Below are positions 24,448 to 52,100 of a DNA stretch of 64,000 bases, piece after piece; position 1 is the stretch's first letter, and each line of letters opens with the position of its first letter. Both the position numbers and the translations under genes were made by a program. This stretch comes from Nymphaea colorata (Eukaryota): assembly GCF_008831285.2 (NCBI RefSeq), contig NC_045138.2:13330001-13394000 (forward strand), in the 5' to 3' direction. The notes beneath the pieces were generated by a model that saw nothing but the letters and a program-made list of their open reading frames with translations, searched no databases and was not told the DNA's origin.

Positions 24448-25232
24448 ATTATCTGGGTGTATTTTTGACCAATTTTGCTCTTCTCTTTTGTAATTTTTTG
24501 GGGCCTATGCATCTACTGCCAACGTTCAGACATCCACAATGAGTTGAATTTCTTTCTGCGTCTTTAATTGAGGGAGTTCGGAGCTGTAAATGTCTGGAAA
24601 ACGTCAGTTTGTGGGTTCAGGTGCTTCCTTGCTAGCGTTGGGTCCTCTTGTGTTTTGTTATCGTGTACAGGAGGGATGTCCCTGTTGTCTCCTCATGCCT
24701 GACTGTGACATAGGAAGCCAATCTACGAATTGGGAAGGGAAGGAAAGGGTAAAATTATCGAGGCCAAAATACTGTTTGTGCTAACGGAATTTGGGTTGGT
24801 TTACACGGCGATGGGGATGAGGTGGATCATGGATGCCTCCTAACCAGGACGCGAGCTTACTTCCATTTTGAACCCTCGCCGCTTGCTGGGTTTCCCTTGT
24901 CTGCCTCGTGCGTAAGTGGCAGCATCAGGAGAGGGTGTGGTCCGTCCAAAAAACTATCTTTCTATGGATTGCTGATAAATATGGGAAACAATACTGCTAA
25001 AAGCTATAAGATAAATATTTCTTGGATTCATTTGTTGACCTCGCCATTTTACTTTTATGAGGATTGTTATCGTGCCCAATGCAATTAAGGTCAGGGAACT
25101 TCCTGGAGGGCGTCTTATTAATCGGTCCAGTCCTTTTGGGGGTTTCTCCCTGTTTGAGGTGGTTATTAAAACCCGCCAAATTTTCGCCGTATTTCTGTCT
25201 GCTGCTGCTAAGGGTAGGTACCATGGCGAGGG

Positions 25233-25680
25233 CTTTTCTGCGACTTCCGGGGAAAAAGGTTACCGTCTTCCAAGCTTTTTCGTGTTTGGTGGTATCAAGG
25301 AAAAACTCGGGGGATGCTCCGTCGAGCTAGGGTTTCGGCGAGGTGTGTGGGGGTTGTGGAGGGAACGAATTGGAGGGTAGCAAGCATTCAAGGGAGCAGC
25401 GGTGCTCCTCCCGGATTGCGGAGAGGCGGCGCGGTAGAGGAACGGCAGAGATTCAACAGGGTGGGAGGCGAGAGTGGTCGAGTGTCTGGTCACGGCCATA
25501 GCGGGGCCCTTGCTGGCAGTTTTCAGCGCACTCAAAGCCACTGGCCATAACGCCCGTCTATCGAGTTCACATCCACGGGAAGAGGTAGCTTCCTGATTCG
25601 AACGTCTTCTGAGGCAGAAGTTAGCCGCATTTTAGCCCCAGGAAGATGGAAGGTATCCAGAAAGCTTTTTGATGTTTTTA
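25233..25680 (+). mobile_element. Degenerate LINE ORF1 (DUF4283-like) 5' fragment
   Basis: The frame of ORF 25314-25550 continues past its stop as RPSIEFTSTGRGSFLIRTSSEAEVSRILAPGRWKV, resembling the plant L1 ORF1 pattern G.G.FL.R...E...IL..GPW. The segment is GC-rich within AT-rich intergenic DNA. Confidence 0.55.
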
Positions 25681-25836: not shown

Positions 25837-25960
25837 GTGCCGTTTGACAGCAGGGATACAGTAATAGTAGTGTCCGACGAATCTGTCTCAAATACACTAG
25901 TTAATATTTGAGACATGTTCATAGGACACCCACATAATAATCTGTCCCGGTTCAAATTAT
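25837..25960. mobile_element. Small palindromic MITE remnant (Tourist-like)
   Basis: gtgtccgacgaatctgtctcaaata ... tatttgagacatgttcataggacac form an imperfect stem inside tttga...tcaaa ends. Confidence 0.5.
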
Positions 25961-28676: not shown

Positions 28677-28697
28677 TCTCTCTCTCTCTCTCTCTCT
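28677..28697 (+). promoter_or_regulatory. (CT)n / GAGA tract near the likely 5' end of the ROS1/DME transcript
   Basis: CT dinucleotide run about 550 bp upstream of the ATG, retained in the duplicate (~45110-45145). Such tracts are typical of plant 5' UTRs and BPC/BBR sites; function is inferred only. Confidence 0.4.
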
Positions 28698-29242: not shown

Positions 29243-32200
29243 ATGAAATCGAGCAGTTCTGAGAAAGACATTTTCGCTGGGGAAGTTCAGAGGTGTTCTC
29301 CGGATGTGATGGAACTTGGAGGCAGACTGCCCCTTTCAGAAGACAATGGCGTCCGTGGGTTCCCAGGGTTGGACTTCCAGACCGGCTGGGTCCCTTTTCC
29401 TTGCAACACAGGGATCAAAACAACTAGTTCCAGCAAAACTCAAGTAGTGGATGCTCCATTAGCCCCAGTGACACCAGAGAAGACCATAACGAAGGAAAAT
29501 GTATTAGATAGCAGTGCATCCAAACCCATCGGCCTGTGTACCCGCATTGAACACTGCATGAAGGAATGGGTTCATCCACATGACGGTGCAACCCCATCAA
29601 ATGTCCCTTCTGCCGATAGCAAAGATGAGCCAAGCACTGAGCAACACAATAGTAAGCTCCAGGTTGATGATTCTCAACAGAGTCTTACGGAGATACTGGT
29701 GAAGGGAAGCATCGGCACTGAGAAGGCTCTTTCTGATGGCATACACTTGAACAGGACACCACCTCAGAAACCAAAGAGAAAGAAAGTAAGGCCGAAGGTG
29801 GTTAAGGAAGGCATGCCTAGAAAAAGTCCAAACAAGGAGCAGGCAAGCCAGAGACAAGAAGGAACTCCCGTACACGGAAGGCACACGACCACAGGTAGAA
29901 AGAAGCGCAAAGATGCTATAACCACCACCACCTTGGATGTAGAGGAGTCCGTTTGTTTGCCGAATGCTGCTCGCGTTGCTTCTTGCAGACGATCACTGAA
30001 TTTTGATTCTAATGCTGAGGCCTGTAATGATAAATTAGGTTCCATAAGTCAGCATGCTGCTGAAAGAGGAAGGCCTACTGCGGGAAACCCCAGCGAACCT
30101 GCTGTAGTTGATGTTAACGGCTCCTTGAATAATATACTCGCTTCTCATCTTTGCTTCTCTCAGAATTCTTCACCTTCTCTACTCAAGAGAAAAGCTTCAT
30201 CAAGGTGGAACGCAAAGAATATGGCTCGCAAGAAAAACAGTGTAGATAATGGATATATTAGGGAAACGCATCAGGAACATTTTGTGAATAGCCATGAGTC
30301 TGCAGACATGCCACGATGCGGTCTGCAAAATCTTTATGACACCAGCCAGCAGGACGATACAATCATGTCAACTGAATCTCAGAGCAGCATACAGACATCC
30401 ACTACAATCTCGACGGGTCTGGTTCAAGTACAACTCCACACAAAGGGCGGACCATGTTCTATGGATTTACAAGAGCAGCAGAACAGGCACATACAAACAA
30501 GTAGCAATCTCAGACCTCATCCGTTCAAAGAAAGTTTCACGGACAGGGAGACAGAAGCGAGTCCTCAGGAACAGCAATCATATGTAATGTCTAGCACTCC
30601 TGCCCAGAAAGGTTCCGCTTGGGAGGTTGGAAGTGTCACAACAGAAACTAGCAAGAAGGTTGTGATCTCGCGATCAGGTAGGCAGAAAGCAGCAGAACCA
30701 AGCAATCATGTACACAAGGAAACCTCTTTGAAACTGTGCGAGAAGCAGCAAAGTCTCATTACTCAGTGTCATCCAGGGGAAAAGTACTTTAATTTTCAAA
30801 ATGGGCAAGAAGGCAATGATATGCTCGTCAAAATACAAGTGAAGGCAAAAAGAAGTCCAAGGAAAGCACCTATTCATTCTCATCACCCTAGAACTTTCTT
30901 TGCAATTAACCACGGTTTCATGCCACAAAGTTCTATACAAGAAAGAGAAGATGACATTGCCTGCGGTCCCCAAACTTGCCAAGAAGCCCTGCTCTTGGAT
31001 AGACTTGCTCAAAGGATAACCAAGAAGCGCAGAAAAGGGATTTCTCACGCCGTGAAATTTGCATCTTGCACTACTGTAGATAGACCTGAAAATTGCACTC
31101 ACCAAGGCCAAGAGTCCCATGGAGTGTTAAATAGTAATCTTGTAAATCAACATGAAACCATGGCAATAAGAGCCACACATTCGGTTCATGACTGCGGAAG
31201 TAGTAGCAACTTGAAAGAAAATTTAACCCCAATGTTCTCCTCAGAGGTAATCTCATTTATGAAACCTATTGATGAGATTGTCAACAGGCTAAGATCTCTA
31301 CACATTCGTGAAAGGGATGTGAATGCAGCAGCTGTACCTCAAAACGCATTAGTGCCTTATTCTGCAGCCGGAACAATTGTTCCTTATGCTGTAACTTTTA
31401 AACCCTTGAGAAAGAGGCGTCCACGACCAAAAGTGGACTTGGATGAAGAAACGAACATCGCTTGGAAGCTTTTGATGGGAATTGAAAGTGCAGGAATAGA
31501 TGGAACAGATGCCGATAAAGAGAGATGGTGGGGGGAGGAGAGAAGAGTATTTCGAGGACGAGCAGATTCATTTATAGCTCGAATGCACCTCATACAAGGT
31601 ACCAAAAACAGCACTGCTCTCTATCCATCTTTCACTCCTCTCTGTCCATCTTTCATATTAATCTGCCACTCCCGAAAATCCATCCTCAACATGGTCCCGC
31701 AAAAGCTGCTATTTCAGACGATTTCATGATGCTAGTATTCCCTTACATGGCAGGCTTTTACATTGAATTACTGTACCAAGTATACAGGAAGCTTCCGCAT
31801 ACTGCATCACACGTCCAGTTGAATAAGCTGTTAAAGAATTACGGATAATATCACATACACAAACAAATGTTGAAGTTTAGGTGATGAAAAAGATTAAAGT
31901 TGTCCAGTTGTTTTACGCGAATGTGTTCAATTTTTTAAGTTCTATAAAACGACAATAAAATTAATGACAGCTTTTCCAATAAGTTTGATGTCAATAAGGA
32001 ATTGAAGGCAAGGATTAGATGTTATCATAGCACCGTTCCTGAGACATGTCAATCAACAGGACCTTCAAAAATATTGCAGCTTATAGTCCTGTGATTAAGG
32101 ATCAATGGATATAATACACAGTCACACAACAGATTCTACAAAATATAATTGACGGTATTATGACCGTTGGAGGTTGACATGCTTTTTGCAGGTGACAGGC

Positions 32201-35200
32201 GCTTCTCCCAGTGGAAAGGATCTGTCGTGGACTCCATAGTTGGAGTCTTTCTTACACAGAATGTTTCGGACCATCTCTCAAGGTGTGTTGTTGTTGTCGA
32301 AAGGCCAAACTAACAAATTAGAACTCTAACAAAAATGTTATACCATGGCTTCTTCAATGTTTTTGCAGTTCTGCTTTCATGGCACTTGCAGCACGCTTTC
32401 CTCTAAATGAGGAAAGTGGGACTGCAAGACTTGGCAATAAGAAAATCGACACATCTCCTCAAGTGCAACAGTTTTCTACTGGAGATCTAGATGAAAGCGT
32501 GACCAACTTGAATAATTTCCCTTTGAGAAAGAGTCCTGAGCTTGATCACAGTTCTATGAAAGTTGAAGAATCAACCTTTCCGGACACAATTGGCAGAGTG
32601 GAATTTTATGACAGGGATACAACAGGTCGAGAGGAGACGTACACTAAGATCGTGCATACCAATGAATGTGAAACAGGTCAAGACTCACCTGGTAGCAACA
32701 GCAACAAGCACTTCCAATCCATTGTTGACAGCAATATACCACCAACAGCATCTGAGGAGGAGAATTTGCTCTGCTTTTCCGTAATTTCCTCCCAAAATTT
32801 GACTGATTGTACCACTCAGGCTGTTAATCAAATTGGATCAAGTCCAGAGTGTGCTACTCCAGCAGATGAGTTTATGAACAGATATAAAAAAGGCTGTTTT
32901 GAGCGGCGATCATTCTCAGAACTTTTGTGCATGGCAGAATCATCAATGTTCAAAGGTCTATATGCAAACATGAGTCACTGTGGGTCACATGGAGAGCAGT
33001 TTCGGAACGCTTCTGACCAGTTGCTGCATGAAAAGCAAAAAACAAACTTGGATAAGGTAAAAGTTAATAACCTATTTTTTATTACAATATCAAGCAGTCA
33101 TGGTATTATGTGAACTGGAAATCTTCATACAAATTTCTCGATTTGTTCTTAGAACATCTGAAAAACTAATTCCGTAGAAAGACAATGAAATATTTCAAAA
33201 GCTATAGTGCCCTTCAAATAGAAAAAATTATTCAAAACAATTGGAGAATGTTTTGCAGACAGAAAAGAGATCATTGATTTGGCAATTATGAAACGCGGCT
33301 GCGAATATGCAACAACTTTTAACAATTTTCTGATTTTAAAAACTCATATTCACGTGTTGGCATTGATGGTCACTTTCTTTCTTTACATGCACCTAAAGTT
33401 CCTCTTTCCTGCTTCCATTTACATTATTACCTTGAGATTCCTTGCTCATCGGCACACAGTAGCCTTTATATTTTTTCCTTCAGTTTGGCTGCCACTAGTT
33501 CCTACTTATGCAAGATAATCTCTGAAAAGGAAATTAGAATAAAGCATACGGTGCCACCATCCTGGCTCATGCATTGGAGAAGAAAAACGGACACTAACTG
33601 ACGAACAACTAAAATCCTTGCAGGTTTCAGGAGCAGGGCCTTCACTTGAAATAGACAATTGCTCTAAGATAAATGGTGAGAGCAAGACTTCATCAGCCGA
33701 AGCCACATCCTCCGTCACAATCTTTGTACAGGAGGCACATAGAATCAGTTCCCTGGACAAAGCGACAAATACAGATTTACAGTCTAAAAGTTCTCAAGAT
33801 GGGCACTGCTTGATGGTGAAAGGAAGTTTGCATTTTTCCAGCAAAGGGAGGGAAACTGTGGACGTGGATTCATTAGAACAAACAAAACGAGTTGAGAACC
33901 AGAAACCCTTGGAAAGCAAACTTGCGACTGTTTCCAAGGATGAAGCTGTTAAACATAGAAATAAACCAAGAAGAGAAGTCCTCAAATCAAACAAGGGGAA
34001 GGGTGAAGCACTTAGCACAAAGGAGACATGGGAACCCTTAAGAAGACAGCTAATGGAGAAGTTTGGCCTTAAAGAAAGGACTTCTGACAAGAAAGATTCA
34101 TTGGATTGGGAAGCAGTGAGACATGCAGATGTCAGTGAAGTGGCTCAAGCGATCAAAGAAAGAGGAATGAACAACAAGCTAGCTGCAAGAATACAGGTAT
34201 CTGGCTGGTAACCAGATTCCAAGGGTTTGCTTACATCAACATCGTTTAGGCAATATATTAGAATCACCTAAAATCACCCAACGAATTTTTGGATGGAAGA
34301 AAGAGTCTGTTTACATAAAGTGCATATTCTGTTGAATAACATATGCCATAAAAAAGGAGACCTAATTGCTCTAGGTGGCAACAGAATATACCATCTAGAC
34401 TCACGTGCCAAGGTGAGTACAAGTGCCCAGGCCACATTAAAGCATGATAATAAGCACCTAGTGGTGGGCCAATAAATGGCTGTATCAAGTAAGATGATGA
34501 GATGTTTTTTAAAAAGTATGTCAGTAATGGCTCCAAAGCACTAAGTGACCCTTCAATAGTTTTATGCACATTCTTCAAAACCTTGAGATTATTAACTATT
34601 CTAAATAGAAAAAAATACGGGATATGTCTATCAGAGGGAAAAAGATTATTCACATATAATGCCTATCTATGCAGGAATTTCTTAACAGACTGGTTGAAGA
34701 CCATGGCAGCATAGACCTGGAGTGGCTAAGAGATATTCCACCAGATAAAGCAAAGTAAGCAAAATTAATTGACTGTCTATTTATCAGGCAGTCAGAATTA
34801 GTTTTGATCCTCTCCTCACATGCAGGGATTTCTTATTGAGCATAAACGGGTTGGGACTCAAGAGTGTTGAGTGTGTACGCTTATTGTCTCTTCAGCAGCT
34901 TGCATTTCCTGTAAAAGATATCTTACATAACCTACTTAATAGATTCTGATAACATGAGAAGGATAGTGGGTTCTCATATATTTTAACTTTTTTTTTTTAT
35001 CTGCGACCAGGTTGACACAAATGTTGGCCGGATATGCGTGCGACTTGGTTGGGTGCCACTGCAGCCACTTCCAGAATCACTTCAACTTCATCTTCTGGAA
35101 ATGTGAGAAAAAAATTGTCTATGCAACATCCTTATGGTAGAATCTTATTCGAATAGATATACTGGAAACCAATCATTTCTACTTTCTCTTCACATGTTAG

Positions 35201-38200
35201 GTACCCTGTGCTGGAATCCATTCAGAAATATCTGTGGCCAAGGCTGTGCAAACTTGATCAGCGAACACTGTAATTGCAGAATATAATTCTTGGACATACG
35301 TGTTTGTCATGCACAAATGGAAAGAATAATGCATTACTTTTGGAAAAATGGAGTTTTATTCACCATTTATTCCTGGAACATATGTCGCATGGATACATTG
35401 TAGTCCATAGAGGAATAGCACTGCGTTGATATATTTAAATATGAGCAGCATATAATAGAACATGGTACAGGAATGAATTGCAATATCCATGTGACATAGC
35501 CTGGAAACAAAATGCTACTTTTTTACATACCGTCTCTAACCTTAATATGGTAATGCAGGTATGAACTCCATTATCAGCTAATAACCTTTGGCAAGGTAAC
35601 CTTGTGTAACATTCATTCCACATTTCATGCAAATAACAACTGCCTAATAATCTCAGTTAGCATTGCTGTTGCAGGTCTTCTGTACCAAAAGTAAACCAAA
35701 CTGTAATGCGTGCCCCATGAGAGGAGAGTGCAAGCATTTCGCAAGTGCATTTGCAAGGTTAGTGTTAGTGGAATGCAATTATACCCTGTGTCAATGCAAA
35801 ATATTTATGAATACATGCATCCTAAACTGTAACAAGTAACTGCATGGACCTAGGGAATCAAACTATGCAGAACATCCTATAGAAAGAGTTGTCCCGACTG
35901 CATCTGGCACAGCAAAATGTGGCCAACTCGTCATGCAATATGAGATAAAATTCCATGAAGGATAGAAATGAAATCATGCAGAGCGTTAGGTCAGGACATA
36001 CATGAGTTCACTGACTCAAGCTTAAAATCCAAATCATGCTGAACTTATCTTCAGGCATGGACTCATCTAGCTACATTTATAACCCGGTTCTCCATTTGAA
36101 TAGCCAATCAGATTTCTAGCATCAGACTCATCTTTTGCAGTTCAAGAAGTGAAAACTGCAAAAGGACTTCTTAGGCAATGATCAGGCAACAAGTAAGCAA
36201 TACCTCCCCATCCCCCAAACCATATAAAGCATAAATTATTTGACTTCACAGATTCTACATAGCGTGGGCCCATGTTTGTGTTTGAAAACTTGTCAGTAGA
36301 AATGAAACATATAGAGTATAGAAAAACGAGTTTACATTAGCAACAACTTTGGTGTCCCTTTTTTTTCCAAGTCAACAGAAGCATACCATTGGGCAAGCCT
36401 TCACCTGCTATTATCAATATCTGCAGCCACCAAAGAAGGATGTGCATGAACATGTGTAGAATATTGTCTTCATTCAGGAAGTCACGATTCAGAGACATTA
36501 ATAATGCTAATATGTTGTCGCAGTGCAAGGCTTTCCCTTCCAGCACCAGAAGAGAAAAATTCAGTAAGTTCGTCTCTTCCTTTCATGGATAAGCAAGGAA
36601 CACCAAAGGTCTGCATCCATCCAGTAGCATTATCCCTGGGAGTACCTTCAGCAATTGAACGTCCAGTTCTCCAAGAGGACTCTGACATCAGCAAGTGTGA
36701 ACCGATCATTGAAGAACCATCAACACCGGAGCCTGAATGTGTTGAAAGTTCAGAAAGTGTAATTGAAGACTTTAATTGTGATGACCCTGATGAAATTCCC
36801 AGTATTAAACTCAACCTGGAGGAGTTCACTCTGCAAGTGAAAAACTATATCCAAGAGAAGGATATCAAACTCCAAGATGCAGATGTATCAAAAGCTTTGG
36901 TTGCTTTGACACCTATGGCTGCTTCAATTCCAACACCCAAGCTCAAGAACATGAGCAGGCTGCGGACAGAACACCATGTGTAAGTTCGGTGCACTAACAA
37001 AAGAGATTTTACAGCATTTCTCTACATGACTTTCTTTGTCATTCTTCTCTCCTGCAGTTACGAACTTCCAGACAACCACCCTCTTGTAGAAGGGGTGAGC
37101 AAACCACACCGAATACCACCTTCATCTCTTATTTAATAGTTTCATTCTTGAGTTGATGGCCTAACTCATCCAAGTGCTTCCAAAAACTACAGTTGGACAA
37201 AAGAGAATCGGATGACCCATGCTTCTATCTTCTTGCCATATGGAGTCCAGGTTATAACATTTATGTCCATTGGCACTTCCATAATCCACACAGTCCCTTT
37301 TATCACCATAAGCTAATATCTATCTCTATCTGTTACCATATGCATCAGGTGAGACTGCTCAGTCTATTGAACCACCAAAGACGTGCTGTGATTTTCAAGC
37401 TTCAGGTAACCTGTGTGACAAGCAGACATGCTTTTCATGCAATGCTGTTCGTGAGACAACTTCTCAGACAGTTAGAGGCACACTACTGGTGGGTAACAAC
37501 CAATATTTAAGCTACTTGTTCAATAAGATGTACTACTCGACATAGTAGGCTAGCAGCTATACTCTTAATGCTGAAAAAAGATAATGCCCTTTGTTATCTA
37601 ACATACATGGAATAAATTTTCAATTGTACAGATCCCTTGTAGGACTGCTATGAGAGGAAGCTTTCCGCTTAATGGTACTTATTTCCAAGTAAATGAGGTA
37701 AGACACCCAATCCTTTGATAAAGTAAAATGTATGGTAAAGATATTTAGTAGCATCCACAAACCTTTATAGGGAACTGTCGTTTGATCTCATAGAAGAATT
37801 AAAAAACATTTCACGTGGAAATAAATGGGCTTCATAGTTACTTCATGGATGAGCGAGCACAAAAGGAGGCCTTAGACAAGACACAACACAGAGGAATAAG
37901 ACTCTCATCCTTCAACGTCGGCCACTAATTGAATTAAACGAATTACACAGGACAAACAGCTTCACCTTCTCATTTTCCTGATATTATTTAAGTAGTTATG
38001 AGCAGCACAAAGGGACATGTTGGTGCTGCAATATTTCTCCTACAGATATTTGAAGTCTTGTGTAGATTCGGTTCTGCAATACCATCTTACATTACAAAAG
38101 AGGATATCAGGAGGGATCTTGAGACATTTTCAAACATATGATCCCTCACAAATTTTAGAAATTTGTCGTTACATAAAATTAAAATAGATACGAAAAAGGA

Positions 38201-39618
38201 ACACATATAAATCATACAGTTAAAAGCAAAATTTTGTTTTAAAACATGACACTATAACCACGTTAGGATTTAGTAATAATGACATTACAAGAAGGCAAGT
38301 TGTTGCAGATATTGTTCTTGAATGGGTCCTGAGATATAGTATTGTAGTCACAACACATTAAAAAGTGGAGATACCGTATCATAGTGGCTATACATTCAAA
38401 ATAGCAACATTCGTTATGTCTAGAGGGCTGAGCATGTGTGCATCATTATATGCATGCAGCTGCTGTTTTCTTGAAATGTCAATCCTTTTGACTAGAAATA
38501 CCATGGATTTTGAAACCATTTAATAGTCCTGATAGCAGCAATTCACCCTATGCAGGTATTTGCAGATCATGAGTCTAGCTTAAACCCCATTGCTGTACCA
38601 AGAGCACTGATTTGGAATCTGCGAAGGAGGACTGTCTATTTTGGAACGTCGGTAACAACCATTTTTAGAGGTAAAAAAGCATTCAAACAAACTTGCACAT
38701 TAAATATGAATATCACATTTATTGTTTTGTATGATAAGAATCTAACGCCTAATATTGATAAGGTATGACAACCGAAGGAATTCAGCACTGCTTCTGGAGA
38801 GGTACGATGTCTTCTTGCTCAGCATTGGCTAAAGCATAGGTTAAGAGCATTCATGTTACCACTTATAGGCACCAAAATAAAATTTAACTTTAATAGAGGA
38901 GGAAAATGATTGCAAAAAAGACATCTCCTTATACATTCTAGAAGACAAAGTTACTATTAGCTTATGGACGGTAAATTACTAGATATCACAATTGACAACC
39001 ACCCACGTGATTGCAGGTGTAGTCCAGGCACCGGACAACCATCCAATCTGGTCGACTGTCACTTTTATGAGTATATAAATGTCCAATAAACATTTTACAA
39101 GACACCGGACACAAAATAGCATGCTAATCATACGAAAAATAGTTTGAATCAAGGGTAGACGAACCATTGTTTACATGAACAATTTCCTATTAAAAAGTAA
39201 GAAGTAGATGACAGAAAGGCGGTGAATGAAAAAGTTCGTCTTGGTTTTCCAATGAAGACTTAATACTGGATGTTCAGAGGATAGAGGCACAATTTTCTAT
39301 TAGAACGCAAGTTACAGAAAGGGGAATGACAAAGTTCATATTGGTTTTCCAAATCAAGACCTAATGCTGGATATTCAGATGAAAGAGGCTGTTCTTATGT
39401 ATTTCTTGTCTTTCTAAGTCAAATTGCATGTTCATGCTGCAGGTTTTGTCTGCGTTAGAGGATTTGACTTGAAGAAGCGGGCACCACGTCCTCTAGTTGC
39501 CAGGTTTCATTTCCCAGCAAGTAAGCAAACAAGAAACCAAAGAACCACAACAAGAAAATTAGATGAACAAGCAGCATCGGAGAATTTTCCTGACATGTTG
39601 AATAATCAACAAGACTAG
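29243..39618 (+). CDS. ROS1: ROS1/DEMETER-family 5-methylcytosine DNA glycosylase/lyase, intact, ~1746 aa
   Basis: 18 exons sum to 5241 nt in frame: 29243-31598, 32192-32282, 32369-33056, 33624-34196, 34675-34754, 34826-34910, 35011-35102, 35201-35269, 35559-35595, 35675-35757, 36524-36979, 37058-37094, 37193-37250, 37349-37488, 37632-37697, 38556-38670, 38763-38801, 39443-39618. Motifs: domain A (RPKVDLDEET...FRGRADSFIARMHLIQGDRRFSQWKGSVVDSIVGVFLTQNVSDHLSSSAFM); HhH-GPD (GLGLKSVECVRLL...FPVDTNVGRI); Fe-S cluster CTKSKPNCNACPMRGEC; permuted CXXC; C-terminal RRM-fold (IPCRTAMRGSFPLNGTYFQVNEVFADH). ROS1 versus DME assignment and the exact start codon are not resolved. Confidence 0.95.
39231..39389. 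repeat. Diverged ~100-bp-period tandem duplication in the last ROS1/DME intron
   Basis: aaagttcgtcttggttttccaatgaagacttaatactggatgttcagagga versus aaagttcatattggttttccaaatcaagacctaatgctggatattcagatga. Confidence 0.7.
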
Positions 39619-41995
39619 CGAACAGGCGTATTGACTAACAAAGTTGTAGTTTGACAATGCATACTTAGTAAAGGATTAAGCTAGACTTATCTTACCCCCA
39701 TTGAAGCAGCAACCATCCTGTGAAAGGGCCCATGTTCTGTGTATATATTAGTGACCTTAATGTTTAGACACATTCTCTGTAAGAGCCTTTGCTTGTCCAG
39801 CTCAAAAGCAATACGCCAGCTTCTTTCCTTTGACTTTTACAAGTACAAAGCAATGTATCCAGTTCATCACATTGTGCATGTTCTGTACAATAATATGAAT
39901 AAATCTGATTGGCCTGTGTATATTGTTCTTATGGTTCACCTAAGAATGAATCAATGTATCTAACCTTAAACAGGTTAGCGATATTTAAGAAAATGTTGCA
40001 GTTGTGGCTGATTATGTCTTCAATAGCTATCTCTATTAAATCATCTCTAGTTGCTGTTTCATGGTAGCATTCGACGACACTAAATAAGGTTCCACTACAA
40101 ATTCAGTATGCTGCACAACAACAAAGCTCTCCGGCTTCTGAATAGTCATTAGGAGCATGAGCATGTGGTGAGCAAAAAGCAAGAGAGGGTTGCCTTATCT
40201 CACCATTCTAGCCTGATCTTTTTTTACGTCCGTACTCACCCGAAGCTTTTCCCCATCAAAACTTTCCTCGTTATACAAAAATAAGCAGCTATAAGTATGT
40301 AGTATATTATCAGCAAAACTTCAGGAGTACGGGCCTGTCATCTTATATTGATATTTGATAGAGACCAGGGAGTAAGTAAGAACAGATACTCTTTCAATTT
40401 TCAGCTTATTTTTCGTTCTTGAGTATAAATACTCTTCTAAAAGCCCAAAAAGATGGAAAACTTCTACCCACGAAACAAGATCCACTCCCATATTGTAATT
40501 AAATTCAGAAATGACGTCACGGATAGATGGATGTCTTAAGTGTATAGATTTTTGTCGACTCTTTTTCACGAAGAAATTGCAAGTTTAATTGCATGTTTGG
40601 CACTAAAATCGTCTTTGACTTTTCTGGCACGGCCTATGTGGCATGGCAAAAGATAACCTCCCCGTGGTACCAAACGACCCTCAAAGGACAGGTTACCCAA
40701 GTCCCTTTCCAAATAATGAAGATAGCAAAATGCATGTCTATGTGAACCCTTTGCGTGTGCGTCAGTGGAGGTTGACGCTTAAACCAGATACGCCACCAGA
40801 AGATAATGCGGGTCCTCCAGAGCTTGCTCTACAGAGTGGATGTTCCCCAGAAATGGTTTGAGCAGTAACGGCTCTCCTACATATGTAACAGGTGTAAGAT
40901 CAAGGTGTAGACATGGCCATGTGAATGAGATCGCAGAGTTAACAAAGGACATGCTCAAAAGATATCGGACTTGGATTCATCAGCAGATTGGGATGAAGAT
41001 CAATCTGTTGGCCAAACAAAACACACTGCATATTTATCTACTAATCCCCATGATAACTGCATCAACGCTCATGTTGTTGGCTTGGTTCATAAGGACTTAC
41101 TTATCAGAAATGAGAAATGGTAACTGCACAACCATCCAGATGCTTGGGTAGGATCAACGACGAAAAGATTTTGTGGGTTTAATGTATGGAGGAGTGTATG
41201 AATAGAGAATTTGACGATGTGTGGTCACTTAATGTTCTGTTCCGCTAGACAAGAAAATTGACTCATTGAGAATCAACTACTCAAACAGGAAACAAGAGAT
41301 TCCGAATGAATGGTGAAAGAACAGACAGCATACAATCGCTTCGTGAAGTTATTAGGGTATGTCCGGAACAGAGAATGGTTCCTGAGAGGGAGAGGAATGT
41401 GCTGAACAATATTTATGTCTTAAAATGCATGCCAAATTGATTAGCAACTGGAAATATACAAACTCTATGATAGAAAAGCTGCAAGATATGTAGTTCCTAG
41501 CAGTATGCCATTTGTAACAAGATTAGCCTAGGAAAATTCCAGTTAATCCCTGATGGCCACCGCCATACGGATAGAAAAGAAGCTAAATAATCAATTTGGC
41601 CACCTGCTAAAAATGGATGGAGATAAAGATTCAGAGAGAAAGAGAGACAAAGGCCACTCACCTGTGGTGTTGTACAAGGCTTTTGACTCTTTGTATTGAT
41701 CAGTGTTCTTTTGTGTCTCATCCATGTTTCTCTTACTCCATCATCGAGGAGGGAAGGAAGGAAAAAAAAGTGGAAGAGAAGAAACCTTCCCATCCCCCTT
41801 TTTCACGTTTATTCTTTTTATAGTCTTTCTTTTCTTTTCCTTTTCATTTTATTTTTTATCGGTTGTTTAATATATATATATATATATATATAATAAATTA
41901 TTTAAATGACACTTTCTAAAATTAAGTTTTTTAAAAAACTGAATTTAATAAAAAAAAAAATTCAATGTTAAGTAGTTTTAAAAATTGTTTTGTAT

Positions 41996-42174
41996 GAATG
42001 GCCGAGCCAAAAAAATTTTGTTGAAGGGGCATATGTTTAAAAACATTTATATTTGGTAGGGCACCTATATATGTATAAAATTAAATCTTAAATTGATCAA
42101 TGTAAAAATAATCTAATTTTAAAGAGCTGGAGTGGGCAACTGCCCACCCTGACCCACATGTGGGTACGCCACTG
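41996..42174. mobile_element. CAGTGGCG-type MITE; a second copy at 49487-49703 lies inside the segmental duplicate
   Basis: Right end gtacgccactg and degenerate left end gaatggccgagcc (caatggtcgagtc in the copy). The 8-bp flanks are ttttgtat / gtttgtgt. Confidence 0.55.
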
Positions 42175-45100
42175 GTTTGTGTGTTTGGGTAAGAGATTGG
42201 CACATGATTTTGTAAGCAAAACCACATTTTACCTCAAAAACTTTGTCATCCAAATGCTCTTTTCTAAAAAAGATTCAATCCAAGGGTGGACCAGAATCAC
42301 TATCTAAAGAGAAGAATAAAATATAAAAACCAACAAAATAAGATTTATAAAAAACAAATTTTACCTTTTAACAATAGGAAAAATACTGTAAAATGAAAAC
42401 GAAAATGCCCCAACCTTACCGACTTCAAATCCAAGGATGACGAGACCAAATGGAAGGGAAGAAGCTGTTTTGAGGACAAGAAAATGAATGAAATGGTACA
42501 ATGCCTATTAAGACCTTCTATTTGATTGTAATTGCTCTCTTCCTCTTGCTCTCATCTCTCTTTACAATATGCTAGCTGAACTTGAATAATAAATTGTCCA
42601 CTCATAATCCAAACAACAATTTGTTTTCTCTCATTCTCTACAGTAGATAGAAGAGTGGACCAACATTTTCAAAATCGGTTTCTGACTCAAATCTGCGGCC
42701 TTTAATGATTCAATGAATCGGTCAATTAAATCATTTGTGAATTGGATGGACATAACAAAGTGTGTTTTTTATAAAAAAAATAAATACTTAAAAAAGGTTA
42801 GCAAAATAAAAAAAATGAAGTAAATGCATAACACCTTCATAGAAAAGAAAAGATGCCAAAAATGAAAAACAATAAAAAATTGACGTAAAAAGTGCCATGA
42901 ATTTATTAGGTCACCCAATATACTTAAAAAAAAAAACCTCCATCGTGATAGCAGGCACTAAATATATAGTTACAATTTCTAAATTGGCCTTGGGGTATTT
43001 ACTGTGGATCTGCCCGGACCCTGGCTTTTTTAAAGTTAAGGTTTTGAAATTTGGCATAGGCTTTTCAGAGACCCACATCTGCCAAGGGGACTAAAACGAA
43101 CAAATCATATGAGTCTTTCTTTTGGAGATGATTCTCTAGTTTTGTCCAAATCATTCCTTCTTACTTTTCCATCGACATTTCCTTCCCCTCCTCCATCCAA
43201 ACACCCACTCCTCGTAAATGTTGAGCGCTTATTTATTATTTTTCAAAGTTGGGTGCTGCTTTGTTATTATCTCAAAAATGATATTTTTTTACCAATATTA
43301 TACATTTTTGTGTAAAGTATGTTAAATAATAAATTAAATACAATTTGTAGTATTAATTGAAATAATAGAAATATTTGTTCACAATATAGCCTTCTTAAAC
43401 GTTTTTTAAATATATATTTTTAAGTATGAAACCGTAAAACAACAAAGATATTATATGATAAAGTTCATCTTTATTACCAAGCGGTTAAAATGCCAAGCAC
43501 AAACAGAGTGTGGGACAAGACGCAAAACGACGATAAAAGGTTGCCGTCTTCCGGAAAACACAAACAGCCAAGTTCATCTATCAATCACTCTTTTCTGCGA
43601 CTTCCGGGAAAAAGGTTGCCGTCTTCCAAGTTTGGTGCATATCAAGGAAAAACTGAGCTAGGGTTTCGACGAATTCAACAAGGTGGGAGGCGAGAGTGGT
43701 CGAGTGTCTGGTCCATTAGATTACATGAAATACTAACATAATGTTCCTAATGTCCCGTGAAAGATGTTTCTAATTCCAATTGTTCTCCTGTTGAACTCTT
43801 GTCCCTTGAAATATACTATTAAATGGTTTTGCTCAATGGTTTTGCTCTTCAGACGCTGACCTTTTTGAACTCACATTTTACTTTTAACAGAGCTTCGTTA
43901 AATCATGTTCTTCAGAAGGAAGAAACTTTTGAATTCACTATGCATATCAAACCATTTAGGAAGTCTCTTTTTTTGAGTTGTAGTGAGGAATTTGGCACAC
44001 TAACTCGGGCCAGTGCCTGATGGACATTAGACGTTGCGCAAGCCCGAGGAGGGGGCAAGGTAGCCTTAGAATTTTACACTTTCTAGTCCCTCAACTCTAT
44101 TTCTTCAAGTCAGAAAATGAAAAAAAAAAAAAAAAAAAAAAAGTCTTACCCATGCCAAACTCAATCACATAAAATGATTCTTACCCTACCTTGATGCCTT
44201 AACATACGTCTAATGGGCATCATTTCTTATTTGGGTGTGAAGAAATTGAACCCGTGACAAAGTTACTGGACAGCATGAAACAATTCCTTGAAGGCCAGAA
44301 AAGATGTCAACCTGCGACGCTTGGTCGTTAACTCAATCTTCAATTTGAATTTTCCCCAGAGACACTGTGTAATCTGAGGAAGTTCTTTCTGTCAAAACTC
44401 AAAAGCGTCCAAAAAGTATAGTATGTGTGCAAAACACATTTTTTCGCGAAAAGCAAGTGAAGTTGTAAATCAATGTCCCCATCTTTTAAAGAAGTTTCTG
44501 TGAATGTCACAACACCATCATTCTCGAGCACACGCCGTGGTTTTGAGTTTTGTTCACCAAGCTGGTAATGAGAAAACGTTTTCAGGTGTCTTTTTCTTTC
44601 TTCTTGGTTTGGCTGGTAATTGGTATTCAAATGGAGACCAACTTAGTTCTTTAAGAATGTTTACGCTAACTTAATTTTAATCTGATTATTAAGAATCTGG
44701 TTTACCCTTCGACTTCTGGAATCTGGTGTGACGTTGATTGGCCAAGTGCCGAATTCAGAAAGAACGAAGATAGAGAGCGCCAATGCACGTGACGTTTGTC
44801 AAAAAAGAGAGCAAAAAAATGCAGGAGGGGTTGGCTTTCCCTTGATTCCAGTGCCCGAGTTGGTCGGTGTCCGAAGACACCATCTTTCCTTGGCGAAGGG
44901 CCTTCTTTTTCTACTTTTATTGTTATTACTTCCTCTCTTATTGAAACCCTTCTCGTTTACGAATGCAGGAGCTTGAACCCAAATAAATTTTATTAGATAC
45001 CTGCTGCTGATGTTAAAAGGAACACAATAAAGAGTTACAGTTTACCACGATAAAAGGATGGAAAGAATGCCACAGTTCCTTATAACGCTTTTGTTTTTCC

Positions 45101-45500
45101 CTTTTCGATCTATCTGTCTCTCTCTCTCTCGCTCTCTAATCTCTATTCCTTTTGTCCCCGTTTGCCGGAGACTTCAGGTTGCTTCAGATTGAACCCATCT
45201 CAAATTTCTGCTCCTGCATCGGCGTCGCAGCTACTACACTGTACAAGGCTTCATTTCTTCTTGACTCTTCTTGCTCTTGCAAGTTCTTATGTGAGCAAGG
45301 CTTTATAGATTCTGCATTGCCGCAACCGCATAACTCTCCAAAAGGTCTCTCCCTCTTTTTTTCTCATAACCTGTATGGTTTTCTACGCGATTTTCCCTGT
45401 TGGACCGAGAATTAACTTAATGCATTGCTGTTTTTCTTGTTTGCTAACGCCACCTCACCATCACTGCACTTGAGCTCGGTCATTCCTGTAACCTCGCCCT

Positions 45501-45533
<33 letters not shown>

Positions 45534-45772
45534 GCCGGAGAAGGAACGGAAAAGAAGACAAGGAAAAATTTCTAAAAACCAACACTTGAGCTCGGTCATT
45601 CCTGTAACCTCGCCCTCTCTCTCTCTCTCTCTCTCTCACCAGAGAAGGAACGGAAAAGAAGACGAGGAAAATTTTCTAAAAACCAACTTCCACATTTCTC
45701 ATGTGGTACTGAAAAAGGGGGAAAGAAGAAAAATACAGAAGCTGCAGAGCAGGAATTCGTTTGAAGAATGCC

Positions 45773-48462
45773 ATGACATCGAGCATTTCTGAGCAAGACA
45801 TTTTAGCTGGGGAAACCCGAACCTTCGGTTCAGACGTGTTGGGCTCCTGTACACGGAAGGCACACGACCACAGGTAAAAGGAAGCGCAAAGATGCTATAA
45901 CCACCACCACCTTGGATGTAGAGGAGTCCGTTTGTTTGCCGAATGCGCTGCTCGCGTTGCTTCGTGCAGACATCACTGAATTTTGATTCTAATGCTGAGG
46001 CGTGTAATGATAAATTAGGTTCCATAAGTCAGCATGCTGCTGAAAGAGGAAGGCCTACTGCAGGAAACCCCAGCGAACCTGCTGTAGTTGATCTTAACGG
46101 CTCCTTGAATAATATACCCGCTTCTCATCTTTGTCTCTCTCAGAATTCTTCACCTTCTCTACTCGAGAGAAAATCTTCATCAAGGTGGAACGCAAAGAAT
46201 ATGGCTCGCAAGAAAAACAGTGTAGATAATGGTTATATTAGGGAAAAGCATCAGGGACATTTTGTGAATAGCCATGAGTCTGCAGACATGCCACGATGCG
46301 GTCTGCAAAATCTTTATGACACCAGCCAGCAGGACGATACAATCATATCAATTGAATCTCAGAGCAGCATACAAACATCCTCTACAATCTCGACGGGTCT
46401 GGTTCAAGTACAACTCCACGCAAAGGGCGAACCATCTTCTATGGATTTACAAGAGCAGCAGAACAGGCACATATAGCAGTCTCATACCTCATCTGTTCAA
46501 AGAAAGTTTCAGGAACAGGGAGACAGAAACGAGCCCTCAGGAACAGCAATCATATGTAATGTCTAGCACTCCTGCCCAGAAAGGTTCCACTTGGGAGGTT
46601 AGAAGTGTCACAACAGAAACCAGCAAGAAGGTTGTGATCTCGCGATCAGGTAGGAAGAAAGCAACAGAACCCGCAATCATGTACACAAGGAAAACTCTTT
46701 GAAACAGAGCGAGGAGCAGCAAGGTCTCATTACTCAGTGTTATCCAGGGGAAAAGTACTTTAATTTTCAAAATGTGCAAGGCAATGATATGGCTCGTCAA
46801 AGTACAGGTAAAGGTAACAAGAAGTCCAAGGAAAGCGCTTATTCATGCTCTTCACCCTAGAACTTTCTTTGCAATTAACCACGGTTTCATGCTACAAAGT
46901 TCTACACAAAAAAGAGAAGATGACATTGCCTGCGGTCCCCAAACTTGCCAAGAATCTATGTCCTGGATAGACTTGCTCAAAGGATAACCAAGAAGCGCTG
47001 CTCCTGGATAGACTTGCTCATACAAGGTACCAAAAATAGGCACTCCTCTCTATCCATCTTTCACTCCTCTCTGTCCATCTTTCATATAAATCTGCCACTC
47101 CTGAAAATCCATCCTCAACATGGTCCCGCAAAAGCTGCTATTTCAGACGATTTCATGATGCTAGTATTCCCTTACATGGCAGGCTTTTGCACTGAATCAC
47201 TGTACCAAGTATACAGGAAGCTTCTACATACTGCACCACATGTCAAGTTGAATAAGCTGTTAAAGACTTACGAATGATATCGCATACACAAACAAAATGT
47301 TGAAGTTTAGGTGATAAAAAAGATTAAAGCTGTCCAGTTGTTTTACGTGAAAGTGTTCAGTTTTTAAGTTCTATAAAACAACAATAAAATTAGTGACAGT
47401 TTTTCCAATAGGTTTGATGTCAGTAAGGAATTGAAGGCAAGGATTAGATGTTATCCTAGCACCGTTCCTCAAACATGTCAATCAACAGGACCTTCAAAAA
47501 TATTGCAGCTTATAGTCCTGTGATTAAGGATCAATGGATATAATACAGTCATACAACAGATTCTACAAAATATAATTGACGGTATTATAACCGTTGGAGG
47601 TTGACATGCTTTTTGCAGGTGACAGGCGCTTCTCCCAGTGGAAAGGATCTGTCGTGGACTCCATTGTTGGAGTCTTTCTTGCACAGAATGTTTTGGACCA
47701 TCTCTCAAGGTGTGTTGTTGTTGTCGTAAGTTCTGCTTTCATGGCACTTGCAGCACGCTTTCCACTAAATGAGGAAAGGGAGACCGCAAGACTTGGCAAT
47801 AATAAAATCGACACATCTCCTCAAGTACAACAGGTTAAGACTCACCTGGTAGCAACCGCAACAAGCACTTCCAATCCATTGTTGACAGCAATATACCACC
47901 AAGCTGAGGATGAGAATTTGCTCTGTTTTTCTGCAATTTCCTCCCAAAATTTGACTGATTTTACCACTCAGGCTGTCAATCAAATTGGATCAAGTCCAGA
48001 GTGTGCTACTCCAGCAGATGAGTTTATGAACAGATATAGCAAGATAATCTCTGAAAAGGAAATTAGAATAAAGATACCGTGCCACCATCCTGCCTCATGC
48101 ATCGGAGAAGAAATACGAACCCTGCCTGATGAACAACTAAAATCCTTGCAGGTTTTAGGAGCAGGGCCTTCACTTGAAATAGACAATTGCCCTAAGATAA
48201 ATGGTGAGAGCAAGACTTCGTCAGCGGAAGCCACATCCTCCGTCACAATCTTTGCCCAGGAGGCACATAGAATCAGTTCCGTAGACGAAGCGACAAATAC
48301 AGATTTACAGTCTAAAAGTTCTCAAGAAGGGCACCGCTTGATGGTGAAAGGAAGTTTGCATTTTTCCAGCAAAGGGAGGGAAACTGTGGACGTGGAATCA
48401 TCAGAACAAGCAAAACTAGTTGAGAACCAGAAACCCTTGGAAAGCAAGCTTGCCGACTGTTT
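45773..48462 (+). pseudogene. Truncated ROS1/DME paralog lacking the glycosylase, Fe-S and C-terminal domains
   Basis: The ATG is kept at 45773 but reaches TAA after ~35 codons because of a ~570-bp deletion, and further stops follow (e.g. 46474-46476). Intron 1 is retained (donor 47027, acceptor 47618). Homology to the parent ends at parent position ~33935, so exons 5-18 are absent. Confidence 0.92.
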
Positions 48463-49129
48463 CACTCACACGATTTCCACTCAACTATTTAAGAAGAGAG
48501 ACAGAGGCCAGGCAGCTCACCGGTGGTGTCTGTATGACTCTCTATATCTACATTGATCCATGTTTTTTTGTGTCTCATCTCGGTTTCTCCTACTCCTCCA
48601 TAGCGAGCTAAGGGAAAGAAAAAAAATGAAGGAAAAGGACGATGGGAGGTTCAGGGCGATAGAATGAACAGGTTCCTAAAGAAAAACCTGAAAAGTGCAT
48701 GGTTTTGTTCTTCTTCCCCTCTTGACGATGATGGAGGAGTAGGAGAAACAGGGATGAAACACAAAAAAAGAACATGGATCAATATAGAGAATCAAAAAGT
48801 GTCTTACAGACACCACCGGTGAGCGGCGAGCGGCCTCTATCTTTCTTTCTGGTGAGCAGCCTCTGCCTCTCTTTCTAATAGTTGAGTGGAAATAGTGTGA
48901 GTGGAAACAGTCGCAAGCTTGCTTTCCAAGGGTTAGGGTTTCTGGTGCTCAATTATTTTTGCTTGTTTTGATGAATCTACGTCCACGGTTTCCTCCCTTC
49001 ACTGAAAAAATACAAACTTCCTTTCACTATCAAACAGTGCCCTTCTTGAGGGTTTTTAGCCTGTAAATCTATCTGTTTCTTTGTCTAGAAAACTAATTCT
49101 ATGTGCCTCGTGTGCAAAGATTGTGAGGA
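48239..49129. ncRNA. Long inverted repeat (arms ~48239-48625 and ~48703-49129, loop ~75 nt); candidate hairpin RNA / proto-MIRNA with ROS1 exon-4 sequence in the stem
   Basis: The reverse complement of 48903-49129 aligns to 48239-48462 and to parent 33711-33935, e.g. cttggaaagcaagcttgc and gaggcacatagaat. The inner stem pairs ctcaccggtggtgtctgta with tacagacaccaccggtgag, and gtttctcctactcctccat with atggaggagtaggagaaac. The inverted repeat is certain; transcription is not shown. Confidence 0.6.
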
Positions 49130-52100
49130 ATGAGGAAGATTGTGAGGAATGAGGAAGGATTCTCCTCCACCTTTCTCTTTTTTCTTCTTTCTCTTTTTTT
49201 CTTCTTTCCCTCCCGCTGATGGAGGAGTAGGTTTCTCTTTTCCTCTCGCTGGCTGACGGATGAGTATGAGAAATAGAGATGAGACACAAATTCTTTTTTA
49301 TTCATCGGCTGCTTGTTTTTGGGTGACCACCTTCCGAAAAAGGCTCGAAGGCCTCCCCATTCTCCCTGCCTCCGGGGTCCTGACATCGGCTGCTTGTTTA
49401 AATAACACTTTCTAAAACTCAATTTTTTGAAAAACTTAATTTAATAAAAACAATTTTTTTAAGTAGTTTTAAAAATTAATTTGTATCAATGGTCGAGTCA
49501 AAAAAATTTGTTGAAGGGGCATACGTTTAAAAACGTTTATATTTGGTGGGGCACTTATATATATACAATTAAATATTAAATTGTTTAATGTAAAAATAAA
49601 CTAATAAAATTAAATATTAAATTGCTTAATGTGAAAATAAACTAATTTTAAAGAGCTAGAGTGAGCAACTGCCCACCCTAGGCCACATGTGGCTACGCCA
49701 CTGGTTTGTGTGTTTGGGTAAGAAATTGGCACATGATTTTGTAAGCAAAACCACATTTTACCTCAAAAACTTTGTCTTTCAAATGTTCTCTTATAAAAAA
49801 AAAAAAAAAAAAAAGATTCAATCCAAGGGTGGACCAGATTCACCATCTAAAGAGAAGAATAAAATATGAAAACCAAAAGAATAAGATTTATAGAAAACAA
49901 ATTTACCTTTGAACAATAGGAAAAATACTGTAAAATGAAAACGAAAATGCCCCAGCCTCACCGAATGGAAGGGAAGATCTTAGTATAAAAGTTTGTTTTG
50001 AGGAGAAGAAAATGAAAGGACATGAAGGAAATGAAATGGTTTAGCTTGGTTTCCCCTTTCTCTCCCTTGCTCTCATCTTTCTTTCTTTACAATATGGTAG
50101 CTGAAGTTGAATAATAAATTGTGCAGTCATAATCGAAACAACAATTTGTTTTATCTCTATCAATCTCTACAGCAGTGGACCAACATCAGTTTCTGACTCA
50201 AATCTATATTACGGGGCTGCTCCATCCAAGTTCAACATGTAAAGTTAAGGTTTTGAAATTCGGAGAGCCCACCTACCATCTGCCATCAAGGGAGGGGACT
50301 AACTAAATGAATGAGAATGAGAGGGATTAAGCACAATGAGATCCAAATCATTCCTTCTTAACCAAACACGCTTTTCCATTTTCTTTTCTCCATCCAAGCA
50401 CCCTCTCTTCTCTTGTAAATGTTGAGCACTCATTATTTTTCAAAGTTGGGTGCTGGGTGGTTGTTATTATCTCAAAAATGATATGTTATTTATTTGCCAA
50501 TATTATACATGTTTTTTGTAAAGTATGTTAATTAAATACAATTTTTAGTATTAATTGAAATAATAGAACTACTGTTGTTAAATATTTGTTCACATGTATG
50601 TATAGCCTTCTTAAACGTTTTTTAAATATATATTTGTAAGTATGAAACCGCAAAGATATTATAGTTCATGTTTATTATCAAGCGCCAAGCACAAACGGGA
50701 CAAAACGCAAAAACGATGAGAAGAAGGAAAGAAACGGGCATTCCCCACTTGACTTCTACTGCGTCAACTTCGGTCCTTGTAAGTAAAAACGAAACTAGGA
50801 ACCGGTTTTCTATCGGTCACTTGTGCATCAATGTCGGTCGGTTTAACTCCTATGTTCGAATAAAATATTAATAATAATTTCATTTTTCTTCTTGTTTGTA
50901 AACTACAATTCCCATGGATGGAACGAGGGAAACAACCTGATGAATGTCTACAAACCGAGGTTTTCAACCCTTTTACTATCTGCGCTTTATCATACACATG
51001 TGATGTGACGCCTGCCCTTTTCTTTAATTGGTAAAAGATTATATTGTTAATTTATAAAGAAAATAGCTATTTTCTGGATTTTAGGAAACCAAATATCATG
51101 CAATTATTGGGACATTACAGGGTTCGAGATTGTTGTCTATTTTTCTTTTTTTTTTAAAAAAAAGGAAAATAGTTCATTTTCACTGAAAGCCAACAACTTT
51201 CTGTCAATTAATCAACAAGAAGACAGCATTAAATATATGTACACTGGCAGGCACAGATCGAAATTAAATTTACGAAGGGGGACCATTACATATTATATTC
51301 TATAAGCAAATTAAAGTGGGGCCAGTACTGTTTGTTTGATTATAAATGTCGGAAAATGCCCCAAAAACATACGTTAAAAAAATTCATGACAATAAAAACC
51401 ATACCTATGGTTGAAAGATACTTAAATTTTGCACCATTACTCAAAACAACCATTTGTCCATTAACCTAATTAGGCTTAAGATGGGGTCTAGATGATAAAA
51501 TACGGCCCTTAATGAAGATAAATTGCCAGTTCCTTAGTTTATGTCAACTTTCTTAACTATACCCGATATTATTATTAACTGGGGATTAAAATGATTATGA
51601 TTTTCCAATTAACGGTCTACTTTTACTGATTTAACAATGTCAAATGAATATTGCTGATTAAAGTGGGCTTTTAACAATATGAAAAGCTACATGTGTACAT
51701 TGTTGTTGTTGTTGTTAGTTCTTCAAGTGTGTTTTGAAAATTTTCTTTGCAATTTTAGAAAGAGTCGGTAGGTAGAAATTTTTGATTCTTGTATGTGTAA
51801 CAAGAGTGAGTGTGTAACATGCATAATTGGGATTCGTATGTGTTCGTTGCATAACTAACTAAATAGATGCTATGGAGTTAGAAAGACTCTACAAGTTGAA
51901 GGTCTTCAAACAATGCATTTTAAAATATTTCCGCAAAGCGAAGGGAGGTCCCGACAGTGGGCATCATGTTTAACGGGAGACAGGCAATTAATTTATGCTT
52001 CTAAGAGTTGCCAACTCTTTTTTGTACAACCTAAAGTCACTGACTGGTAAAGTTAAGAAAGTATGGTGAAGTGAAACCCTGCTCACCCCAACCAAAGTAT

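Follow-up and report, generated by a model that had tools for sequence, protein, structure and literature searches.

A truncated tandem copy of a ROS1-like DNA demethylase gene in Nymphaea colorata is transcribed mainly antisense to its parent

What does a hairpin built from pieces of a DNA demethylase gene do beside that very gene? The question is raised by a 64,000-nt stretch of the water lily Nymphaea colorata (contig NC_045138.2, positions 13,330,001 to 13,394,000, forward strand; hereafter the window), where an intact ROS1-like gene (the parent) is followed by a truncated tandem copy ending in an inverted repeat. According to the original prediction, made from the letters alone, the hairpin would be transcribed from a duplicated promoter, or from the opposite strand, and would yield small RNAs against the adjacent demethylase, forming a lineage-specific methylation rheostat. 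The copy and its inverted repeat exist, the copy is spliced on the minus strand and expressed beside parent-type RNA, and this RNA has a long, near-perfect complementarity to parent exons 1, 3 and 4.

Reads from 4 of 24 listed runs (X3, X14, X19 and X20) were aligned to positions 45700-49160 only. X19 is an unstranded RNA run of raw reads with the same species label as the window, of which about 6% was read; X14 consists of RNA-like contigs under another organism label; X3 is a DNA run with another organism label, from another study; X20 gave 1 read only and was uninformative. Letter differences, indels and loose ends are reported from the best 40 of 271, 12 of 35 and 18 of 59, respectively. 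In total, 221 X19 reads were placed, of which 141 had a likeness to the copy of 99% or higher. The copy and the RNA deduced from these reads are as follows.

43590..50727, plus strand: tandem duplicate of about 25233-43540, with at least 9 deletions, no catalytic exons and a frameshifted exon 1
47846..48947, minus strand: first exon of the antisense RNA, with a probable start at about 48917-48947 inside the right arm of the inverted repeat (read depth, X14 contig end)
47231..47845, minus strand: GT-AG intron of 615 nt, shortened to 589 nt when the other acceptor is used (6 and 3 X19 reads, one X14 contig each)
45850..47256, minus strand: second exon of the antisense RNA, with acceptors at 47231 and 47257 and an approximate 3' end (spliced reads, depth, splice consensus)

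Two joints were found in X19, 47230>47846 (6 reads with 6 starts) and 47256>47846 (3 reads). Both have CT..AC ends and thus lie on the minus strand, where they share a single donor, CAG/GTGAGT, and use two canonical acceptors. The X14 contigs contained both joints and a third with CT..AC ends (46076>48172), and none of the minus-strand joints was present in the DNA run X3. Copy-type X19 reads were frequent beside the intron (15/21 at 46893, 7/7 to 10/10 at 48078-48125) but rare within it (1 of 4-5 at 47764-47803, with a depth of 0 at 47324-47555), and no plus-strand (sense) intron of the copy was found among the joints listed. We concluded that the copy is transcribed mainly antisense to the parent, the second of the two routes initially envisaged. 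Over seven exon sites in X19, copy-type letters accounted for 46 of 80 read-site counts and parent-type letters for 34 of 80 (the reads overlap and the counts are not independent); copy RNA was about as abundant as parent-type RNA.

The first route, sense transcription from the duplicated upstream region, found no support in the two samples, with reads aligned from 45700 onward. None of the 221 X19 reads crossed 45700, copy-type letters at 45777 were absent from both X19 and X14, and the two X19 reads at this position were both parent-type, so that no sense RNA from the copied upstream region was visible. The supposed promoter copy corresponds to 1.9 kb 5' of the ATG and is 95.6% alike to the parent; a CpG-rich stretch that better resembles a first leader of the parent (25200-25650) is kept in the copy only as fragments of 41-63 bp.

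As for the 5' end of the antisense RNA, X19 depth was about 17-18 at 48600-48831, 3 at 48832-48947 and 0 beyond, and an X14 contig ended at 48917. From this fall and this contig end we infer a start at about 48917-48947, inside the right arm, an assignment weaker than the splice evidence. The left outer arm was covered about 8-20 fold, with a depth of 0 at 48948-49160 in X19 and X14, and an RNA holding the whole ROS1-derived hairpin found no support in these two runs.

The parent, which would be the target of such an RNA, was correctly recognised as a demethylase gene at the outset.

29243..39618, plus strand: coding span of the intact ROS1-like 5-methylcytosine DNA glycosylase gene (peptide identity, domains, all exons mapped)
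33624..34196, plus strand: parent coding exon 4, of which 33715-33936 is present in both hairpin arms
25200..25652, plus strand: CpG-rich stretch, putative first leader/promoter of the parent, where the duplicated unit begins (composition, fragments at 43590-43715)
41636..41786, plus strand: repeat copy in the parent 3' flank, a relative of the inner stem (self-comparison, profile search)

Its exon-1 peptide (783 residues) is 100% identical to the RefSeq N. colorata protein 'DNA glycosylase/AP lyase ROS1-like', and exons 29243-31598, 32192-32282, 32369-33056 and 33624-34196 account for 1236/1236 residues of isoform X1. The protein has HhH-GPD, permuted CXXC (Perm-CXXC) and RRM_DME domains, and its catalytic motifs (lysine, aspartate and iron-sulphur) are intact. 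The name ROS1-like follows the database match; the gene may belong with ROS1 or with DME. An ortholog from N. thermarum falls in the same protein cluster, and in Victoria cruziana an ortholog is accompanied by a paralog of greater distance. At 25200-25499, the GC content is 0.58 and the observed to expected CpG ratio 0.95. Two oddities of the protein may be mentioned here: about 145 N-terminal residues of the Victoria ortholog (residues 30-174) are missing in N. colorata (window 29309-29395), and RefSeq isoform X2 has lost 12 residues (X1 1280-1291, window ~34877-34913) between the catalytic lysine and aspartate motifs, given which it may be inactive.

The body of the antisense RNA is about 95% complementary to parent exons 1, 3 and 4; 567 of its 2439 21-mers match parent exons perfectly, and its longest open reading frame (ORF) has 108 residues. 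An RNA starting at 48917-48947 would fold in the inner stem (z -23.9) and form only 14-37 of the 199 exon-derived pairs, so that the ROS1-derived hairpin of the original prediction would be mostly missing from it. Compared with the hairpin, the long antisense body, which was not part of the original prediction, has by far the greater complementarity to ROS1 mRNA. The reading that we put forward, tentatively, is that backward transcription of the deleted ROS1 copy yields a spliced, non-coding RNA about 2.4 kb long, which likely begins inside the right arm of the terminal inverted repeat and likely damps ROS1 through mRNA pairing or small RNAs. The simplest active route would be a trans-antisense RNA that either pairs with ROS1 mRNA or is diced in its 5' stem, with small RNAs against ROS1 as the outcome. 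The 5' inner stem and/or the sense-antisense duplex might be cut by Dicer-like proteins into small RNAs against ROS1, whose output would be lowered, and the outer right arm, lying upstream of the start, would act chiefly through its DNA, in methylated form, and not through RNA. PMC7544125 gives it as established that Dicer-like proteins are supplied by Pol II hairpins and double-stranded RNA. The abundance near that of the parent, the splicing in two organisms, the age of the copy and the amount of complementarity all speak for this proposal, for which the antisense siRNAs of rice pseudogenes (PMC2708354) and an antisense RNA at Arabidopsis PIN2 (10.64898/2026.09.25.754583) are precedents.

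Several points weigh against it. The start site corresponds to a depth fall in one read run and one contig end, and depth dips are weak evidence. The strand assignment rests on the splice sites, because the X19 library is unstranded. Some of the 9 joint reads may be parental, as the parent shares the splice sites. Bulk co-expression in X19 is not the same as expression in the same cell. The copy seems to be without constraint, with a divergence from the parent of 4.3-6.5% throughout, the left arm included, synonymous and non-synonymous changes in a ratio of 23:64, and deletions within the antisense exons. Finally, the parent is an intact gene with RNA of its own in X19, and so is not silenced.

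The shared splice sites deserve a closer look.

31828..32688, minus strand: the same intron in the parent, with the donor CAG/GTGAGT and the acceptor conserved (3 X19 reads)

In three X19 reads, letters of the parent type (31811-31827) are connected to the donor side of the minus-strand intron. With the conserved splice sites, they indicate that the intact ROS1 gene likely has its own spliced cis-antisense RNA, whose structure the copy inherited; alternatively, the three reads stem from an allele of the copy with parent letters. As a separate observation, parent-type X19 reads numbered 0/20, 0/8 and 0/10 at 48287, 48397 and 48417 (parent 33759, 33869 and 33889), that is 0 at exon-4 sites, versus 2-7 at exon 1 and 3 sites. 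This deficit, no more than a lead from one sample, could be due to cleavage, early polyadenylation in intron 3, parent RNA that is mostly antisense, or effects of filtering or sampling.

That the locus is neutral debris is almost as probable as regulation. It would then be a tandem duplicate in decay that underwent a secondary inversion and is transcribed in antisense from a repeat-derived start, without measurable effect on ROS1. The copy lies head-to-tail with the parent (self-comparison) and breaks off in exon 4, at parent position 33936, to continue into the repeat that matches the parent 3' flank at 41636-41786. Its divergence looks neutral, with 4.3-6.5% in seven 5' blocks and 5.8 and 9.7% in two 3' flank blocks, and it has at least 9 deletions; parent RNA is present, and no selection is needed for splicing at antisense sites that the copy inherited from its parent. 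Moreover, new small-RNA loci derived from coding genes are described as often deleterious and short-lived (10.1101/2024.07.25.605110). Against this reading, the RNA equals parent-type RNA roughly in abundance in X19 and is spliced in two organisms, and kilobase-long, 95% complementarity to a co-expressed mRNA is reported as a trigger of small interfering RNAs (siRNAs; PMC2708354). The age of the copy also argues against it. With Victoria as outgroup, 615 codons gave 12 informative residues, of which 9 group the parent with N. thermarum, 2 the parent with the copy and 1 the copy with N. thermarum, so that the duplication predates the N. colorata/N. thermarum split. This age refers to the duplication and not to the inversion. 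The term 'lineage-specific' of the original prediction would have to be widened accordingly.

The inverted repeat announced at the end of the copy spans 48243-49126, and its parts are the following.

48243..48463, plus strand: left outer arm, exon-4 copy, 94.5% alike to the parent (12 differences/220)
48464..48901, no strand: inner stem (repeat-derived plus short filler) and loop, inside the observed RNA (folds, read depth)
48902..49126, minus strand: right outer arm, inverted exon-4 copy, fast-evolving and mostly outside the observed RNA
49117..49290, minus strand: 19-bp tandem duplication at the end of the right arm and another inverted fragment of the inner repeat

The arms, of about 410 and 437 nt, form an irregular hairpin of 885 nt. 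Folding of 48200-49170 gave -548 kcal/mol, against -270 +/- 5 for shuffled sequences (z -58.6, 0/20 shuffles as good). A loop is present, of 37 nt in the plus-strand fold or 84 nt in the minus-strand fold instead of the ~75 nt proposed. The outer 221 bp of the stem do derive from exon 4, but from a part of it (33715-33936) and not from the whole exon, and the inner stem is related, as stated from the start, to the repeat at 41636-41786 (profile E 3e-43). The full fold-back comprises 199 exon-derived pairs and 142-146 repeat-derived pairs. In their gene-derived part the arms are 87% alike (28 differences/217), and the exon/repeat junction is common to both, so the inversion came after the truncation. 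Parent, copy, left arm and right arm can all be told apart by diagnostic letters. An Rfam scan of 40000-52000 found no family at threshold (2 chance-level matches).

A short tandem filler at the exon/repeat junction (48455-48490), the perfect 19-bp tandem duplication (49117-49154) and a 16-bp direct repeat (49303-49399) look like traces of template-switching repair. The X3 DNA depth was 24 at 48716-48831, versus 4-11 in the bins beside it. Further close copies of the inner repeat are therefore probable elsewhere in the genome, and they may inflate RNA depth over the same interval.

We consider it less likely than either of these readings that a transcript crosses the whole 885-nt hairpin, in at least some tissues, and is diced to siRNAs or a young microRNA (miRNA) against ROS1 exon 4, as originally predicted. 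Such a transcript would pair at 199 exon-derived positions, and in a minus-strand RNA its perfect helices would reach 36 bp. In that RNA it is the left arm, the well-matched one, that is antisense to ROS1, and 75 of its 201 21-mers match the parent perfectly; for the right arm the number is 0/205, therefore only minus-strand RNA could target ROS1 well. A plus-strand hairpin would give these poor right-arm guides, and no plus-strand transcription was seen. A further lead, which is not evidence, comes from 11 runs whose kind is unknown or guessed (contigs of 41-100 million letters, from 3 studies). They contain 76-91% of the words of 48440-49400, although only 48% of these words come from positions up to 48917; if any of these runs is RNA, a longer transcript exists. 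Against this stand the zero depth over 48948-49160 beside a covered left arm, and the 14-37 exon-derived positions left to pair in an RNA ending at 48917-48947. A small remainder of probability goes to other effects. Inverted repeats are prone to mis-assembly, but an inversion absent from the plant is effectively refuted by the 13% difference between the arms, by the 0/931 31-mers common with the rest of the window, by three contigs of the independent DNA run X3 that tile 48371-49160 with 0 differences, by one 494-nt X14 contig across the left arm, loop and right inner arm, also with 0 differences, and by the presence of at least half of the region's words in 13/24 listed runs.

The two outer arms have evolved unevenly. 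Private changes over 219 columns numbered 23 in the right arm, 5 in the left arm (7 with two alignment-end artefacts) and 7 in the parent (right versus left, p 0.0009; right versus parent, p 0.005), so that the outer right arm has mutated about four times faster than its partner. Of the 23 right-arm changes, 13 are of the C>T or G>A type, and 10 of these 13 fall at CHH sites. Per C/G site, such changes were found at 13/94 in the right arm, 0/94 in the left arm (p 1.6e-4) and 4/94 in the parent (p 0.04), an excess that would fit long-term methylation guided by small RNAs from the full hairpin. Their share is not significantly above background (13/23 versus 4/14, p 0.17), nor is that of transitions (18/23 versus 126/211, p 0.11), and a distinct methylation signature of the right arm is upheld only in part (spectrum p 0.11-0.17 versus background). 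These changes are a hint of long-term non-CG methylation of an arm lying upstream of the presumed start. An older right arm, with a left arm refreshed by gene conversion, is disfavoured: only 1 of 15 right-arm-private residues equals Victoria, whereas at 13 of the 15 sites the parent or the left arm does. By these outgroup residues the right arm is fast rather than old. No wobble bias toward either strand was found (10 G-U pairs each). The inner stem shows the opposite asymmetry (8 changes on the left and 2 on the right, over 85 columns), but in a patch that is poorly aligned.

An extension of the damping proposal, which we hold to be improbable, is a self-limiting circuit in which ROS1 would demethylate the right arm, the antisense RNA would be switched on and ROS1 would go down, a negative feedback through RNA. 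The duplicate, having lost the sense gene, would then have retained the antisense exon-intron unit of the parent and placed it behind an inverted copy of exon 4 that is prone to methylation.

Other features of the copy and its surroundings may be recorded here. An open frame of 316 codons (47606-48556) spans three deletions of the copy, enters the hairpin and lies partly within the antisense intron. It has no Pfam domain and matches no annotated water lily product, and it was rejected as a coding gene: the 6 distant matches among 1568 candidates all fall in a short conserved stretch, and none is from a water lily. Over 48147-48440, X14 and X3 reads revealed a second exon-4 copy with other frameshifts (indels at 48227, 48255 and 48386; X14 depth 38), and several further rearranged joints were seen in both runs. 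Additional ROS1 pseudogene copies are present in the X14 and X3 organisms, in which the unique parts of the hairpin were of the window's own type only (90% cut-off). On the far side of the locus are a xanthine/uracil permease-family transporter gene (PF00860, 52900-58145), in opposite orientation and starting about 4 kb from the presumed antisense start, and a single-exon prephenate/arogenate dehydratase gene (PF00800, 60549-62039).

Loci of a similar kind are known. Partial-duplicate inverted repeats reportedly silence their progenitor in Antirrhinum (SULF) and in Mimulus (YUP). At the level of titles and abstract openings, no description of the present locus was found in the literature; the supplements of 10.1101/2020.04.25.061721 might list it. 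The closest likeness is to the rice pseudogene antisense RNAs and their natural antisense siRNAs (nat-siRNAs; PMC2708354), where a duplicated pseudogene is transcribed antisense to its functional parent, and where minus-strand transcription of inverted pseudogene pairs is also reported, the duplex having 185 nt and 83% identity. The features of trans-antisense pseudogenes found here are a non-coding duplicate, opposite-strand transcription, long complementarity and bulk co-expression in X19. The differences from the rice loci are that the evidence here is a spliced long RNA and not small RNA, that the parent is an adjacent DNA demethylase, and that antisense body and terminal hairpin form one unit.

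Populus ARR17, Salix PISTILLATA and Diospyros OGI/MeGI (PMC13097978) likewise involve a partial-duplicate inverted repeat homologous to an intact gene, and the present inverted repeat does contain progenitor gene sequence. In those accounts siRNAs and silencing were measured, whereas this locus is known from DNA and long RNA. Here, moreover, the RNA seen in X19 and X14 lacks most of the gene-derived right arm, a repeat accounts for half of the stem, and the progenitor, 15 kb distant in cis, continues to be expressed. Young MIRNA genes, in the Allen model as presented in 10.1101/2024.07.25.605110, also have a fold-back with target-gene sequence whose arms diverge over time. They differ from this 885-nt irregular hairpin, which has no known precise miRNA/miRNA* and no Rfam match; expression from a co-duplicated target promoter, part of one version of the model, was not seen in X19 or X14.

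Like the Arabidopsis ROS1 rheostat (PMC4380477, PMC7544125), the locus would link demethylase level to DNA methylation. In Arabidopsis, a methylated transposon-derived sequence 5' of ROS1 is reported to raise its transcription in cis (PMC4380477), whereas the locus described here is situated on the 3' side of the gene, has its matches in coding exons and would act through RNA to reduce ROS1. Between the stop codon and the hairpin on its 3' side are 9-10 kb. The hairpin corresponds to exon 4 and to a repeat of the 3' flank, and self-comparison gave no match between it and the sequence 5' of the parent gene. On its sequence, the locus does not appear to be an Arabidopsis-type rheostat. At Arabidopsis PIN2, a ROS1-dependent antisense long non-coding RNA with an exon-derived, methylation-sensitive promoter has been described (10.64898/2026.09.25.754583). 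An exon-derived sequence as putative methylation-sensitive antisense promoter is common to both cases, but there the target is PIN2 and the interference acts in cis, whereas here ROS1 itself is matched, by RNA from a separate copy.

The locus is therefore of a known kind, real and expressed, and aimed at a central epigenetic enzyme, with a suggested regulatory function. For the balance of methylation and demethylation in plants, one circuit is known in detail, that of the Arabidopsis ROS1 promoter (PMC4380477), and signs of glycosylase-driven demethylation are reported in the endosperm of an early-diverging flowering plant, a water lily (PMC12619087). The locus is easy to test, because diagnostic letters separate copy, left arm, right arm and parent, and small-RNA libraries of N. 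colorata exist (10.1101/2020.04.25.061721). Even if neutral, it would clearly exemplify a hairpin in which one arm mutates at about four times the rate of the other. If the feedback loop is true, it would be an RNA-based negative feedback of a design unlike the Arabidopsis promoter rheostat. If damping by the antisense RNA is true, a spliced antisense RNA that matches the ROS1 message in abundance would constitute a second, differently built control point of that balance.

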